The notes below the pieces were generated by a model, which searched no databases, was not told the DNA's origin, and saw nothing but the letters and a program-made list of their open reading frames with translations. This document shows positions 32,215-64,000 of a stretch of DNA of 64,000 bases, piece after piece. The DNA is taken from sequence record MT446390.1, one strand, 5' to 3'. Source of the DNA: Escherichia phage TH12. Position 1 is the first letter of the stretch. Every line of letters starts with the position of its first letter. Position numbers and translations under genes: made by a program.

Positions 32215-33027
32215 TTAGAAACGAGATGCGACTTTCGCATATAAACTTACATTAGAATTCTGTTCTACCTGAGTTGTGGTAGTGTCAACTGCTTCGGCAA
32301 CAAAATTAAGACCGGCAGCGTCATTGTCAACTGTATTTATACTTTCGGTAATAGCGGCTTCTTCTTTAGTAGAACCTTTGACCATTTCTACAATAGCAGT
32401 TAACTTAGTACCAAATGCGTCAGAATAATCCATACCTTCAACCAGGCCAATAACTTTTTCTTTCTGAGATTCAGTCAGGTCTTTTACGCTTTCATTAATA
32501 GCGGTTTCACGCTGAACGTAATTGATATATGCATCACGTTTGGTAACTTCTTCGAACAAACGAGCGGTTTCTTCTTTATGTTCGGCCAGCTCTTCTTCCA
32601 TTTCTGCTACAACATCTACAGATTCTTCTGGAACAACAACGTTATGTTCAACAAACAGTTCTTTCAGACCACCAAGCATGGATTCGAACAAATCAGCTTT
32701 AATGCCTTTATCAACTGCGATTTGGTTTTCTGCGAGCCATTCTTTTGCAAGATGGTCTAGGAATTTAGAAGCTTGTTCAGCCAATTTTTTATCAGCTTTC
32801 TCTTCAGCATCTTCTTTGGCCTTTTCAACTTCTTCTTCAGCCTTTTCGGCGATGGCTTTGATATGAGATTCAGCCAGTTTGACTGCTTCCTGCTTAACGG
32901 TGGCTTCGAATACAGTGCTGAAATTAGCTTTAACGTCCGGAGACAGTTCTACTGATTCGAAAACACTATTAAGAGCAACTGAAGTCTCGATGTTCTGAGC
33001 TTCTTTCAAAAGTTGTTCTTTGATCAT
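32215..33027 (-). CDS. 22: prohead core scaffolding protein
   Basis: 270 aa, acidic coiled-coil, resemblance to T4 gp22. Confidence 0.93.
   Translation of the reverse strand: MIKEQLLKEAQNIETSVALNSVFESVELSPDVKANFSTVFEATVKQEAVKLAESHIKAIAEKAEEEVEKAKEDAEEKADKKLAEQASKFLDHLAKEWLAENQIAVDKGIKADLFESMLGGLKELFVEHNVVVPEESVDVVAEMEEELAEHKEETARLFEEVTKRDAYINYVQRETAINESVKDLTESQKEKVIGLVEGMDYSDAFGTKLTAIVEMVKGSTKEEAAITESINTVDNDAAGLNFVAEAVDTTTTQVEQNSNVSLYAKVASRF
32334..32341 (-). promoter_or_regulatory. possible late promoter for gene 23 (inside gene 22)
   Basis: TATTTATA on plus strand about 137 nt upstream of gene 23 start. Confidence 0.4.
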
Positions 33028-33057: not shown

Positions 33058-33065
33058 TATTTATA
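33058..33065 (-). promoter_or_regulatory. late promoter for gene 22
   Basis: TATTTATA on plus strand about 30 nt upstream of gene 22 start. Confidence 0.5.
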
Positions 33066-33708
33066 ATGCTTTTAAACTCTCTGCGAGAGCTTTAAATGCT
33101 TCGTCAGCACTGTTTTTGGTGATTTCCACCGAATTTTCTGATTCTGATTCTGATATTTGTTTAGGAGTAACCCAAGCATCTGGAGCAGAAGGTCCCCATA
33201 CGGCATCTACGCCGACGGTTAATTTAAATCCTTCGTTCACGATACGGTACCCTTTATTGGTGTCGGTTAAAGAACCAAGACCACGAGAGGAAACACCTGG
33301 AATCCAACCAGCTCGTATATTAGCAGCTAATTTATCGCCGGGACCATGGTCGCCTTCAATAATTCTAGCACGTCCATATACATCGTTTCCTTTCCACCAC
33401 ATATCTTCAATAATGATAGCGGCTTGCATAGGGTCAACATTTGCACGAGGTGGATGGTTTAATTCTCCAAGGGCTTGTTTGGTTGCGACTTGTTCTTTAA
33501 TATAGTCACTTACTGCTTTTTCCAAAACGCGTTTAGGATATAAACGTTTATTTCGGTTAACAACCTCTGCCTGAAGAAAAATACCTTCTATATAAAGCCC
33601 TGGTTTTAAGCCAGAATCTTTTCCATCATGAGATTCCAACATTGGAACGCCATCAATAATCTCACCGGGTTGACCCCAAGTTTCAATAAGTAACTCGGGT
33701 TTATTCAT
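33061..33708 (-). CDS. 21: prohead core protease
   Basis: 215 aa, resemblance to T4 gp21. Confidence 0.93.
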   Translation of the reverse strand: MNKPELLIETWGQPGEIIDGVPMLESHDGKDSGLKPGLYIEGIFLQAEVVNRNKRLYPKRVLEKAVSDYIKEQVATKQALGELNHPPRANVDPMQAAIIIEDMWWKGNDVYGRARIIEGDHGPGDKLAANIRAGWIPGVSSRGLGSLTDTNKGYRIVNEGFKLTVGVDAVWGPSAPDAWVTPKQISESESENSVEITKNSADEAFKALAESLKAL

Positions 33709-61235: not shown

Positions 61236-61970
61236 ATGGAGCTAATCTTTTTAAGTGGCATCAAACGTAGTGGTAAAGACACTACTGCTGATTACATCAA
61301 TTCAAACTTTAAATCCGTAAAATACCAATTAGCATATCCAATTAAAGACGCTCTAGCAATAGCCTGGGGGCGTAGACATGCCGAAAACCCTGATGTATTC
61401 ACAGAGTTGAAATACGAATACTTTGAAGGCATTGGATACGACCGTGAAACACCATTAAATCTCAATAAGTTGGATGTTATTGAATTATTGGAAGAAGCGC
61501 TAATTTATTTACAAAGTCAATATTTACCAATTAATAATGTTAAAGTATTATCATCGTTAGAAGGTGGATATTCATATCTAGATATTAAACCATATGAAGC
61601 CCTGCGTGAAGCTATAAATAATATCAACGACACATGGTCAATCCGCCGTCTTATGCAAGCCCTCGGTACGGATGTTGTCGTTAATTTATTTGACCGTATG
61701 TATTGGGTTAAGCTTTTTGCATTAAACTATATGGATTATATTGGAAGTGATTTCGATTACTACGTTGTGACCGATACACGCCAAGTCCATGAAATGGAAA
61801 CCGCTAGAGCGATGGGTGCTACAGTTATTCATGTGGTTCGCTCTGGTACGGAATCCACTGATAAACATATTACAGAAGCTGGGTTGCCTATTGAAGAAGG
61901 CGACTTAGTTATTACAAACGACGGCTCGTTAGAAGAGCTTTATTCTAAAATTGAAAAAATCTTAAGGTAA
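61236..61970 (+). CDS. 1: deoxynucleoside monophosphate kinase
   Basis: 244 aa, P-loop-like GIKRSGKDT, resemblance to T4 gp1. Confidence 0.9.
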   Translation: MELIFLSGIKRSGKDTTADYINSNFKSVKYQLAYPIKDALAIAWGRRHAENPDVFTELKYEYFEGIGYDRETPLNLNKLDVIELLEEALIYLQSQYLPINNVKVLSSLEGGYSYLDIKPYEALREAINNINDTWSIRRLMQALGTDVVVNLFDRMYWVKLFALNYMDYIGSDFDYYVVTDTRQVHEMETARAMGATVIHVVRSGTESTDKHITEAGLPIEEGDLVITNDGSLEELYSKIEKILR

Positions 61971-61974
61971 TAAA

Positions 61975-62660
<686 letters not shown>

Positions 62661-62672
62661 TTTTACAAAACA

Positions 62673-62702
62673 GTTTACATAAGGATGATGGCGTGTTACT
62701 AT
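62673..62702 (+). promoter_or_regulatory. T4-type early promoter
   Basis: GTTTAC 62673-62678, TACTAT 62697-62702; dyad AGGATGAT/ATCATCCT flanks the -10. Confidence 0.6.
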
Positions 62703-62736
62703 CATCCTATCAAATAAACGACCTCAAGGAAATAAA

Positions 62737-63024
62737 ATGAAAACCTATAAAGAATTTATATCACCTGATGCTAACGTTTCTACTCTGACTGAAGCAACCC
62801 TTACTTCCGAAGTTATTAAAGCAAATAAAGGACGTGAGGGCAAACCAATGATTAGTCTGGTTGACGGCGAAGAAGTAAAAGGTACTGTTTACTTAGGGGA
62901 TGGATGGTCTGCTAAGAAAGATGGCGCTACTATTGTTATCTCTCCGGCTGAAGAGACTGCACTGTTTAAAGCTAAGCATATTTCTGTAGCTCAGCTTAAA
63001 ATTATTGCAAAAACCCTTCTGTAA
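62737..63024 (+). CDS. hypothetical protein (95 aa, MKTYKEFI family)
   Basis: Promoter-leader-ORF cassette; shares exact 29-nt start region with next cassette. Confidence 0.6.
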   Translation: MKTYKEFISPDANVSTLTEATLTSEVIKANKGREGKPMISLVDGEEVKGTVYLGDGWSAKKDGATIVISPAEETALFKAKHISVAQLKIIAKTLL

Positions 63025-63027
63025 GTA

Positions 63028-63057
63028 GTTTACATGCTAATAGGACTATGTTATAGT
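63028..63057 (+). promoter_or_regulatory. T4-type early promoter
   Basis: GTTTAC 63028-63033, TATAGT 63052-63057; dyad TAGGACTA/TAGTCCTA flanks the -10. Confidence 0.55.
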
Positions 63058-63087
63058 AGTCCTATCAAAATTAATTAGGAAAATAAA

Positions 63088-63396
63088 ATGAAAACCTATA
63101 AAGAATTTATCAATGAAGCGGCTGCACCAAAGACATTTGTTATTAATACTCAAGCGAGTCTTGATGATGAGTACGCGGATGCAATTCTGAGGTCACTTGC
63201 TAAGAACGGTGTTGAAGTATCTGCATCAGACTTTAAGAAAGGGTCTTCCGAGATGTTTATTTCTATAACTAAAGGATCTAAAGCTAAGATTAAATCATCA
63301 TTCGGAGTTGCTCGCACCGATCAAATCGACAGTCATGACTTTAAACAAACTGGTGTTAAACGGCAGAATACGATTGCATCACGCGGAATAAAATAG
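63088..63396 (+). CDS. hypothetical protein (102 aa, MKTYKEFI family)
   Basis: Promoter-leader-ORF cassette. Confidence 0.6.
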   Translation: MKTYKEFINEAAAPKTFVINTQASLDDEYADAILRSLAKNGVEVSASDFKKGSSEMFISITKGSKAKIKSSFGVARTDQIDSHDFKQTGVKRQNTIASRGIK

Positions 63397-63407
63397 TTTA
63401 TAAAACC

Positions 63408-63437
63408 GTTTACTTTTAGATAGGGTGGTGATACTAT
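63408..63437 (+). promoter_or_regulatory. T4-type early promoter
   Basis: GTTTAC 63408-63413, TACTAT 63432-63437; dyad TAGGGT/ACCCTA flanks the -10. Confidence 0.55.
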
Positions 63438-63465
63438 TACCCTATCAACTACTGAGGAGAATAAA

Positions 63466-63651
63466 ATGAAACGCGCTGAACTGATTCGTAATGTTGCTGT
63501 AGTAATTGCTTCAATGGCTTTTAGTTTTTCGATGTTTGTAGGATTCATTTGTGGACTACTGACAACAACAGAAAATTCTATCTCATTGGTAGTAGCATTT
63601 CTAATCGGCTTAATCGCTATCGTTATGGATAAAATTGCAAAAGGTGAGTAA
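63466..63651 (+). CDS. small membrane protein (61 aa, two predicted TM helices)
   Basis: Hydrophobic segments VAVVIASMAFSFSMFVGFICGLL and LVVAFLIGLIAIVM. Confidence 0.55.
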   Translation: MKRAELIRNVAVVIASMAFSFSMFVGFICGLLTTTENSISLVVAFLIGLIAIVMDKIAKGE

Positions 63652-63652
63652 A

Positions 63653-64000
63653 ATGAAATATCATGTATATGCGGATTTTGAAGCAAATCCTTCTAAAGAC
63701 CCTGATTGTCGTTTGATACGCAAACCATTTGATTCAGCGGCTCAAGCATGGGCTTGGATTAAAACTTGTACTCCTTCTTACACTTTCTTTGAAGTGGTAG
63801 ATGATAACGGCATTCTGCATCCAGAACCTACAGAAACTATTAATTTCCTTCTGTTTGCTGGTTACGACTGTTATCCTCTTGGCGGTATTGACGATCTTGT
63901 TGCTACAGGAAAAACTGTTGAAGCTCTTCGTGAAATCTACAAAAATGCTGAAGAAAATTTTGACTGGTACCAGATTGTAAATGCACATACTTTTGAAGCG
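63653..64000 (+). CDS. hypothetical protein, N-terminal part (3' end lies outside the window; not in supplied ORF list)
   Basis: ATG at 63653 two nt after previous stop; frame open to the end of the window. Confidence 0.5.
   Translation, partial: MKYHVYADFEANPSKDPDCRLIRKPFDSAAQAWAWIKTCTPSYTFFEVVDDNGILHPEPTETINFLLFAGYDCYPLGGIDDLVATGKTVEALREIYKNAEENFDWYQIVNAHTFEA

Follow-up and report, generated by a model that had tools for sequence, protein, structure and literature searches.

Why should two neighbouring phage genes begin with exactly the same DNA and then encode unrelated proteins? The question is raised by a locus in a 64,000-nucleotide stretch of Escherichia phage TH12 (MT446390.1), the whole of which is called here the window. 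An exact 30-nucleotide repeat, AAATAAAATGAAAACCTATAAAGAATTTAT, is present in two copies in all (a search of the 64 kb window allowing up to 3 mismatches gave no others), with a mean expected count of 0.00 in 100 dinucleotide-preserving shuffles. An earlier, sequence-only reading had given the identity as 29 nucleotides; the identity is confirmed, and the match extends one base more, from 62730 and 63081. Each copy holds an ATG that opens an ORF (ORF1 and ORF2), with an A-rich context after a GGA Shine-Dalgarno core in the leader, and MKTYKEFI is the N-terminus of both products. These adjacent small proteins had been described as alike in their first eight residues and unrelated afterwards. This is what BLASTP returns: the likeness covers only the N-terminal 32 residues, identical over the first eight and weak beyond, and the remainder does not align.

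The window belongs to an RB69-like T4-type phage (Mosigvirus) and is 99.6% identical at this locus to Shigella phage Shf125875. The locus is the 57B-proximal internal-protein (IP) locus, with ipI (ORF1) and ip7 (ORF2) in tandem between two conserved genes, 57B and trna.4 (Table 1). The left border is annotated as 57B or Acb1-like in Shf125875, Mizar, RB69 and T4. The name trna.4 is given in the Shf125875, RB69 and T4 annotations, and a homologue follows the IP cassettes in most related loci. The sequence-only reading had taken this last gene for a third cassette of like architecture. It does have a promoter-hairpin unit of its own (unit C), but the 30-nucleotide unit and MKTYKEFI are absent and the gene is the conserved trna.4. 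Its product is very hydrophobic (GRAVY 1.24), starts MKRAELIRN with no capsid targeting leader and contains no L/I-x-E; it is not an internal protein.

Table 1. Features of the TH12 internal-protein locus and of the head genes considered with it (window coordinates; fold energies are for RNA)
Feature	Position	Strand	Details
Scaffold gp22	32215-33027		T4_CASP 1.5e-89
Gene 21, prohead core serine protease gp21	33061-33708	-	Pfam Peptidase_S77 3e-107
Gene 57B, Acb1 anti-CBASS phosphodiesterase family	62205-62660	+	Pfam Acb1 PF23474 1.3e-58; conserved left border of IP locus
Unit A	62674-62708	+	-35 TTTACA 62674-62679; TG-extended -10 TACTAT 62697-62702; fold -13.2 kcal/mol, z -3.3
Unit A inverted repeat	62682-62708		AGGATGAT/ATCATCCT; spans -10
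Repeat copy 1	62730-62759	+	Last 7 nt of leader, ATG and CTS codons 2-8
ipI, internal protein I precursor (ORF1)	62737-63024	+	95 aa; Pfam IPI_T4 PF11634, PDB 2JUB, phrog_4363
IPI propeptide/CTS, residues 1-19	62737-62793	+	Predicted cleavage after L17-T18-E19
Mature IPI*, residues 20-95	62794-63021	+	
Unit B	63029-63065	+	-35 TTTACA 63029-63034; TG-extended -10 TATAGT 63052-63057; fold -14.6 kcal/mol, z -3.6
Unit B hairpin	63040-63065		ATAGGACTA/TAGTCCTAT
Repeat copy 2	63081-63110	+	
ip7, internal head protein 7 precursor (ORF2)	63088-63396	+	102 aa; phrog_2667 'internal head protein' 4.2e-42
Ip7 CTS, canonical 10-residue MKTYKEFINE	63088-63117	+	Predicted gp21 cleavage after I8-N9-E10
Unit C	63409-63446	+	-35 TTTACT 63409-63414; -10 TACTAT 63432-63437; fold -16.0 kcal/mol, z -3.7
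Unit C hairpin	63419-63446		GATAGGGT/ACCCTATC
trna.4 homologue, 61-aa hydrophobic protein	63466-63651	+	phrog_1692 1.4e-32; conserved right border

The two genes had been listed as encoding unknown small early proteins, a description that does not hold for either. ORF1 is an orthologue of internal protein I (IPI). The IPI_T4 profile (PF11634) matches residues 20-95 over its whole length (1-76 of 76; 1.4e-50, 169.6 bits, the Pfam gathering cutoff being 25) and a second profile, phrog_4363, describes an internal virion protein. The 76-residue chain of PDB 2JUB ('Internal protein I'), a solved structure of mature IPI*, aligns from end to end with the same residues, 72 of the 76 being identical, and its first residue falls at residue 20 of ORF1, right after LTE. 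At the nucleotide level the gene is 98.6% identical to RB69 ipI and 82% to T4 ipI. ORF1 shares with T4 IPI the 72 mature residues, a 19-residue propeptide ending in (L/I)TE ahead of A, and its place directly after 57B. It differs in four mature-part substitutions and in the propeptide (MKTYKEFISPDANVSTLTE instead of T4 MKTFKEFTSTTTPVSTITE), and is close to the RB69 allele; RB69 IPI is itself four residues away from T4 IPI (PMC6024577).

ORF2 is a member of the named Ip7 family. Its phrog_2667 match spans residues 1-102 (profile 1-101), and its identity to proteins that bear the name Ip7 or internal head protein is 76-95%. Ip7 is the annotation in Shf125875, where it is described as similar to RB15 Ip7 (CAA84464), and in further phages. 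Its homologues form 14 clusters, for which all the source names and long contigs are those of T4-like phages.

The shared start of both genes is the capsid targeting sequence (CTS) of T4-type internal head proteins. Proteins bearing this propeptide are steered to the core of the prohead, and the gp21 protease cuts it off after L/I-x-E; the first 10 residues of IPIII are enough for encapsidation, with residues 4 and 7 setting targeting and residues 8 and 10 setting processing (PMC9026906). Y4, F7 and I8 are present in both TH12 proteins. Ip7 follows the leader rule MK(T/S)(Y/F)xEF(I/L)xE in its canonical form (MKTYKEFI continues with NE), and IPI carries an IPI-type extension. Compared with the CTS of T4 IPII and IPIII, MKTYQEFIAE (Mullaney and Black 1996, reviewed in PMC9026906), Ip7 has the same 10-residue form with Y4, F7, I8 and E10, and differs by K5 for Q5 and N9 for A9, positions that vary among phages; IPI matches in its first eight residues but has a longer propeptide and a distal cleavage site. 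Each precursor contains a single L/I-x-E (LTE at 17-19 in IPI, INE at 8-10 in Ip7) and neither mature part has any; that of Ip7 would comprise 92 residues (pI 9.7). The window also encodes gp21 itself, adjoined by the genes for gp22, gp23 and the portal gp20, and this protease should remove the CTS from both proteins. A six-frame regular-expression scan, together with the 3-mismatch DNA search, gave no CTS-bearing ORF in the window other than ipI and ip7. We put at about 0.93 the probability of the overall reading, that of a 57B-trna.4 internal-protein locus in which CTS-led ipI and ip7 encode injected anti-defence proteins and cassettes are exchanged within the leader and CTS.

It is necessary to ask whether the repeat is kept for its protein or for its RNA. 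We compared the window with 34 related loci (31 IMG/VR contigs, T4, RB69 and one plain-text region). In this set 66 ORFs, belonging to 21 unrelated payload families, start with MK(T/S)(Y/F)x(E/Q)F(I/L/M)xE, and from 0 to 3 leader-bearing ORFs occupy each 57B-trna.4 interval. The first and second codon positions of the 66 leaders are nearly fixed and the third positions vary (T31/A19/C11/G5 for Thr, T46/C20 for Tyr/Phe). The peptide is thus fixed while synonymous sites vary, which indicates that selection acts on the peptide. The proposal that a promoter and translation-initiation unit is reused in front of different payloads is therefore right in that a 5' unit is reused, but the shared part is a protein sorting signal and not, in the main, a translation module. 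The comparison across relatives that had been suggested bears out the variability of the region: CTS leaders recur in the 34 loci as well as in the window, and cassette order and content differ. If the 30 nucleotides were instead an RNA-level module equalising translation initiation, with MKTYKEFI incidental, one could point to the 7 nucleotides upstream of the ATG that the repeat takes in, to the A-rich context following the GGA core, and to phage P922, where the exact repeat (48 nucleotides) is mostly non-coding promoter and leader. This is very unlikely, given the free third positions and a close relative, ESh15, in which the same gene pair has only 15 nucleotides of exact identity; moreover, trna.4 shares the promoter architecture without the unit, and in experiments the 10-residue peptide alone brings foreign proteins into the capsid (PMC9026906, PMC7697877).

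A recent tandem duplication, in which the bodies diverged and the 5' end was kept, would account for the tandem arrangement, the near-equal sizes (95 and 102 residues) and the identical 5' ends. We consider it even less probable than an RNA module. A perfect 30 nucleotides beside bodies that do not align past the N-terminal 32 or so residues is incompatible with uniform divergence, and each body has its own orthologues elsewhere, in other positions and combinations: T4 has IPI by itself, and in other phages a gene of the Ip7 family stands by itself or ahead of ipI. The folds also differ, IPI having two sheets with flanking helices (PMC3012670) and the Ip7 model a beta-alpha-beta-beta-alpha core. 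Finally, chance likeness between two AT-rich gene starts can be dismissed: the genome is AT-rich and ATGAAA starts are common in phage genes, but the 100 shuffles gave no match at 3 mismatches and the leader is found in 66 ORFs.

How the CTS-led genes came to share exact DNA, and not only a peptide, can be approached by comparison with RB69. Window positions 62100-62756 are 98.8% identical to RB69 57B, its promoter and the first 20 nucleotides of ORF156c, and positions 62733-63070 are 98.2% identical to RB69 ipI and its downstream promoter. The two alignments overlap inside the CTS only, and the breakpoints between window and RB69 lie in the CTS and just past the unit B hairpin. Gene order is also changed, an Ip7-like gene preceding ipI in RB69 and ipI preceding ip7 in the window. 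On this comparison, the exact identity of the two copies is attributed to a crossover inside the CTS. The position as well as the length of the exact repeat varies among close relatives (30, 15 and 48 nucleotides). Adjacent cassettes are identical at 27 or more of the 30 positions in 8 of 21 cases, compared with 5.9% of between-genome pairs. We also considered pervasive gene conversion and rejected it, mean CTS identity being 22.65 of 30 within and 22.71 between genomes (permutation p 0.56); the equality of these means implies that homogenisation is episodic, not pervasive. Within-genome likeness is enriched only in the top tail and in adjacent pairs, among loci that are phylogenetically non-independent. 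On this reading, exact identity over 30 nucleotides is not required for function but is a footprint of homologous exchange in the leader and CTS; such exchange, together with the flanking promoter-hairpin units, shuffles the IP cassettes of T-even phages, both from genome to genome and inside a single one.

Three such units precede ipI, ip7 and trna.4. A scan for sigma-70/T4-early-type promoters identified units A and B with a spacing of 17; unit C has the same spacing and fell under the scan threshold. Each carries a stem of 8-9 bp. Unit A has a counterpart after RB69 57B that shows single-base differences and stands before a different ORF, a closely similar counterpart of unit B lies downstream of RB69 ipI, and the 3' half of unit C is identical to the unit between ipI and trna.4 in T4. 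The T4/PST PeSL consensus is TTTACW-N17-TAYWAT (PMC4122927); the -10 boxes of units A and C fit TAYWAT and that of unit B is one position off. The claim that each cassette has its own early promoter is accurate for the window, with units at 62674, 63029 and 63409, but is not general: many cassettes of relatives directly abut the upstream ORF with no promoter. Where a promoter is present, a stem of 5 bp or more accompanies it in 22 of 25 cassettes of relatives, and the stem sequences differ. No late promoter (TATAAATA) was found on the + strand from 61620 to 64000, the nearest being at 61613. The description of a hyperplastic region of tandem cassettes was apt, these being individually promoted in this T4-like phage and varying in content and order among relatives.

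Judged by their sequence, the three units match the PeSL-like elements known at T-even IP loci, and promoter activity is predicted. As in PeSL and PeSL-like cassettes (Arbiol et al. 2010, PMC2839356; Comeau et al. 2014, PMC4122927), an early promoter, stem-loop, Shine-Dalgarno sequence and start stand beside variable small ORFs, the stem-loop lies between the -35 and -10 or over the -10 of a promoter of the TTTACW-N17-TAYWAT form, and recombination junctions fall in conserved 5' units. The IP-associated elements are analogues and not homologues of the RB49/phi1 PeSLs, compared with which they have T4-early-type promoters and weaker, AT-rich stems (Arbiol et al. 2010, PMC2839356). Promoter and terminator/attenuator activity has been measured for the RB49/phi1 PeSLs only (PMC2839356). 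Unlike these, the TH12 stems have no poly-G/C tract or T-run. A terminator role for the hairpins cannot be assumed for this reason, and no terminator-like site was reported at them.

The following course of events may be proposed. During head assembly the CTS would bind the gp22 scaffolding core, so that IPI and Ip7 are built into the prohead; gp21 would then cut at LTE19 and INE10, respectively, and the mature basic proteins would remain with the packaged DNA. At the next infection they would enter with the DNA and act ahead of any phage gene expression, IPI* blocking a type IV restriction enzyme of the GmrSD family whose target is sugar-modified hmC DNA. For T4 IPI, presence in the virion, N-terminal processing and injection are established in the literature (PMC3012670, PMC9026906). 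The suggestion that genes of this kind are anti-defence candidates is strengthened, since the payloads are internal proteins and IPI has been proven to inhibit GmrSD (PMC3012670, PMC12373910). The DNA of the RB69 lineage carries arabinosyl-hmC in place of glucosyl-hmC; that of RB69 serves GmrSD as a substrate, and RB69 IPI guards against the enzyme (PMC6024577). Given its kinship with RB69, TH12 DNA probably contains arabinosyl-hmC, and the 95% identity of its IPI suggests that this protein too inhibits a GmrSD-family type IV restriction enzyme.

For Ip7, the CTS rule and annotation by homology predict a protein that is packaged, cleaved by gp21 and injected. No study of the function of phage Ip7 came up in literature searches. 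An AlphaFold2 model based on a 12-sequence alignment is of moderate confidence (mean pLDDT 64), and Foldseek comparison of it with the PDB gave nothing at E <= 0.001, only generic ACT, RRM and ferredoxin-like matches. A PDB sequence search matched designed ankyrin proteins only weakly, over single repeats; these matches (best E 0.0012, no stretch passing by itself) were judged non-significant. Ip1, Ip2 and Ip3 each inhibit one distinct GmrSD (PMC12373910). Ip7 resembles T4 Ip2 and Ip3 in its leader, predicted delivery route and small size, and all these payloads are mutually unrelated (PMC12373910; PMC9391042). It has no sequence similarity to Ip2 and Ip3, which are injected inhibitors of distinct GmrSD variants. 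By analogy, the targets of Ip1, Ip2 and Ip3 make a further variant of such first-line defence the most likely target of Ip7. That Ip7, on injection, inhibits a host defence matched so far to no internal protein is a tentative proposal, to which we give slightly less than even odds. One candidate target could be a type IV enzyme, of the GmrSD family or another, that acts on RB69-like arabinosyl-hmC DNA, and Ip7 would act through a small ferredoxin-like core and a basic C-terminal tail (residues 74-102) that is strongly conserved.

The CTS, the polymorphism of IP loci and the promoter/stem-loop cassettes are already known, having been described since 1994-1996, and this is a textbook locus. The polymorphic IP loci of T-even phages are reportedly the subject of Repoila et al. 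1994 (EMBO J 13:4181), and the first protein to be named Ip7 came from phage RB15. The window adds a clear instance of recombination with its junction within the CTS, in support of the long-standing view that the conserved 5' unit also serves as a place where cassettes are exchanged. T4-like ORFs starting MK(T/S)(Y/F)xEF(I/L)xE can be read as encoding proteins co-injected with the DNA and, because of this, as candidate inhibitors of first-line host defence. To our knowledge, only three CTS proteins, Ip1-3, have known targets; the 21 payload families in the 34 related loci, Ip7 among them, are a resource for defence-inhibitor candidates. To read Ip7 as an inhibitor is a natural extension of the 2025 finding on Ip1, Ip2 and Ip3 against different GmrSDs and, if true, the ipI and ip7 pair would set the host range of this Mosigvirus lineage.

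The sequence AAATAAAATGAAAACCTATAAAGAATTTAT occurs at 62730-62759 and again at 63081-63110 as an exact direct repeat of 30 nt. The repeat finder thereby confirmed the identity noted in the sequence-only reading, although the shared region is one base longer than the 29 nt proposed there. These are the only two copies in the 64 kb with up to three mismatches, and 100 dinucleotide-preserving shuffles gave a mean of 0.00. The ATG inside each copy opens an ORF (ORF1, 95 aa; ORF2, 102 aa) and both proteins start with MKTYKEFI. By BLASTP, their N-terminal 32 residues alone align, the first eight being identical, so the two are indeed unlike after a common start, as had been observed.

Coordinates and database matches of the principal features
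Feature	Coordinates	Strand	Description
57B	62205-62660		Upstream of ORF1; Pfam Acb1, 1e-58
Promoter-like site A	62674-62702		TG-extended -10
ipI (ORF1)	62737-63024		Pfam IPI_T4 (PF11634), 1.4e-50 over residues 20-95; phrog_4363 'internal virion protein'
Promoter-like site B	63029-63057		TG-extended -10
ip7 (ORF2)	63088-63396		phrog_2667 'internal head protein', 4e-42
Promoter site C	63409-63437		TTTACT-N17-TACTAT; upstream of ORF3
ORF3	63466-63651		61 aa, hydrophobic; phrog_1692; T4 trna.4 homologue
gp22 scaffold	32215-33027		Adjoined, with gp21, by gp23 and gp20
gp21	33061-33708	minus	Peptidase_S77, 3e-107

The encoded products had been regarded as unknown small proteins, but ORF1 is internal protein I (IPI), whose structure is solved, ORF2 carries the existing name Ip7 and ORF3 corresponds to trna.4, a conserved neighbour. 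Along its whole length, the 76-residue chain of PDB 2JUB ('Internal protein I') aligns with ORF1 residues 20-95 (72/76 identical); the solved mature protein therefore begins right after ...S-T-L-T-E19. ORF2 has no Pfam match. Of its 14 homologue clusters in a database of 5.8 billion proteins, all those with a source name or a long contig point to T4-like phages; several carry the name Ip7. ORF3 had been described as a third cassette of the same architecture: it does follow a promoter site, but the common leader is absent.

The shared unit is the capsid targeting sequence (CTS) of the T4-type internal (head) proteins (IPs). In the CTS, residues 4 and 7 govern targeting and residues 8 and 10 processing (PMC9026906), and the gp21 prohead protease cuts after L/I-x-E (PMC9026906; also PMC7697877, PMC3012670). 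Y4, F7 and I8 are present in both proteins. Each precursor contains one L/I-x-E site (INE at residues 8-10 of Ip7, LTE at 17-19 of IPI), with none in the mature parts. Sequence identity, motif placement and the presence of the protease and scaffold genes in the window are observed directly, and from these we infer that Ip7 of TH12 is packaged, cleaved and injected.

The repeat had been interpreted as a shared translation-initiation module. For comparison, 33 loci around 57B homologues were taken from IMG/VR, plus T4 and RB69; the family analysis covered 34 related loci and the window. The 57B-to-trna.4 interval contains from zero to three ORFs starting MK(T/S)(Y/F)x(E/Q)F(I/L/M)xE per locus. 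The 66 leader-bearing ORFs fall into 21 payload families mutually unrelated by BLASTP. Codon positions 1 and 2 of the leader are nearly invariant while third positions vary (Thr3 T31/A19/C11/G5; codon 4 T46/C20; Phe7 T54/C12; all four bases at residue 8). Selection therefore acts at the level of the peptide rather than of RNA or DNA elements, which replaces the initiation module with the CTS. The same pattern indicates that the region is translated in this frame, a point on which the original proposal had been made to depend.

The exact DNA identity has a different origin. The gene order is 57B, ORF156c, ipI, trna.4 in RB69 and 57B, ipI, ip7, trna.4 in the window; ORF156c is an Ip7-family allele with approximately 70% nucleotide identity to the window ip7. 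Window positions 62100-62756 match RB69 57B, the promoter unit and the first 20 nt of ORF156c (98.8%), while 62733-63070 match RB69 ipI and its downstream promoter unit (98.2%). Since these alignments overlap solely at 62733-62756, within the CTS, a crossover in the leader placed the ipI body behind the promoter and leader of position 1. This exchange explains why both copies share ACC, a minority choice, as Thr codon. The leader before the window ip7, AAAATTAATTAGGAAAATAAA, is that found before T4 ipI, which implies mosaicism over tens of bases. We also compared the extent of the repeat (62730-62759/63081-63110) with that in four related loci (L001, L002, L038 and L039). With the ipI-ip7 order it is 30 nt (-7 to +23) in the window, Shf125875 and Mizar, 15 nt (-7 to +8) in ESh15 and 48 nt (-40 to +8) in P922 (Tequatrovirus), where it spans the promoter 3' half and leader instead of the CTS. 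Such different extents within one promoter-leader-CTS zone are consistent with separate exchange events. Identity of at least 27/30 occurs in 8 of 21 adjacent cassette pairs compared with 5.9% of between-genome pairs, and 30/30 in 2/48 within-genome compared with 1/1945 between-genome pairs; mean leader identity does not differ between within-genome and between-genome pairs. Enrichment of the highest identities with equal means identifies the repeat as a footprint of episodic homologous exchange and not a functional requirement.

In each of the promoter-hairpin units upstream of ORF1, ORF2 and ORF3 (A, B and C), an inverted repeat spans the -10 box (stems AGGATGAT/ATCATCCT, ATAGGACTA/TAGTCCTAT and GATAGGGT/ACCCTATC; -13 to -16 kcal/mol, z -3.3 to -3.7 against shuffles). 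In relatives, 22 of 25 promoter-bearing cassettes have a stem of 5 bp or more at the same place, with different sequences. Of the 10 TTTACW-N17-TANNNT sites in the window, 5 have a stem of 6 bp or longer, compared with 9% of shuffled 43-mers, and three of these five are in the IP locus. The units agree with the published PeSL (early promoter, stem-loop, Shine-Dalgarno and start), whose stem-loop is mostly between -35 and -10 or overlaps -10 (PMC2839356), and with its T4/PST type, TTTACW-N17-TAYWAT (PMC4122927). Arbiol et al. mention more than 30 known IP variants and, in their account, Repoila et al. (1994) reported PeSL-like AT-rich elements at the two variable T-even IP loci (PMC2839356). 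No T-run was found in the three hairpins, which therefore cannot be taken to act as terminators. Toward the opposite end of the window, on the plus strand, two early-type TTTACA-N17-TANNNT promoters at 563-605 and 1969-2011 have hairpins, 6 bp or longer, that cross or adjoin the -10; these are probably further PeSL-like units of another variable region.

The whole window has 19 copies of the late-promoter motif TATAAATA (8.1 expected), mainly on the minus strand ahead of structural genes. None occurs between 61620 and 64000, and the IP genes thus lack a late promoter of their own in the vicinity. A family of approximately 154-aa CTS proteins (consensus MK(T/S)Y..(F)L.E...KAAA...) lies about 2.4-3.9 kb 3' of 57B in seven loci (L005-L008, L011, L031 and L034), preceded by a GC-rich terminator hairpin and usually then by TATAAATA. 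This late-type context, compared with the early-type promoters of the 57B-proximal cassettes, points to two IP expression contexts.

By megablast against phage genomes, 62600-63700 matches Shigella phage Shf125875 (Mosigvirus) over its full length at 99.6% identity and about 20 further records at 97-99%. Shf125875 is annotated in the order 3, 1, 57A, 57B, 'internal head protein 1', 'internal head protein 7 (similar to RB15 Ip7)', trna.4, trna.3, trna.2. Phage Mizar labels ORF1 'nuclease inhibitor' and 57B 'anti-CBASS Acb1-like'. Nucleotide identity per gene is 97-99.6% with RB69 from 1 to trna.4 (trna.3, 91%) and 65-82% with T4. One locus (L003, 4454-4721 of IMGVR_UViG_3300030021_000002; 57B 99% identical) has no IP cassette between 57B and trna.4, so the entire IP content can be lost. 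In Escherichia phage OLB35 (L040, 761-900; UNVERIFIED record), ip7 is truncated at its 5' end and lies behind a short piece similar to the first 20 nt of trna.4 (TGAAACGCGCTGAACTGATTC), through either rearrangement of the cassette or an error of assembly.

Mature IPI (IPI*) blocks the type IV restriction enzyme GmrSD of E. coli CT596 (PMC3012670). RB69 IPI, with four residues unlike T4 IPI, protects RB69; GmrSD accepts the arabinosyl-hmC DNA of this phage as a substrate (PMC6024577). In 2025, Ip2 and Ip3 were each shown to inhibit specifically one of two other GmrSD variants (PMC12373910; see also PMC9391042), and it was proposed that the proteins of both Ip loci are all aimed at variants of one defence (PMC12373910). 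Our literature search found no functional study of phage Ip7. Its AlphaFold2 model (pLDDT 64, moderate) has a beta-alpha-beta-beta-alpha core (residues 14-72). Foldseek returned nothing from the PDB at E <= 0.001 and only generic ferredoxin/ACT/RRM-like matches. The C-terminal approximately 30 residues are basic, conserved and predicted to be disordered; residues 74-102 (63307-63393, GVARTDQIDSHDFKQTGVKRQNTIASRGIK; pLDDT <50) are among the family's most conserved parts. They may form a tail that binds a target and folds upon doing so.

The finding is real, and the promoter/hairpin architecture and cassette shuffling at this locus were published in 1994 and 2010-2014. By analogy with the other internal proteins, Ip7 would be injected and would inhibit a first-line defence, probably a restriction enzyme of type IV. 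The general picture, a hyperplastic region whose modular cassettes carry anti-defence payloads, is upheld, for Ip7 by this analogy. Directly 5' of the genes for the injected anti-restriction proteins is 57B, of the anti-CBASS Acb1 family, which makes the stretch a small anti-defence cluster.
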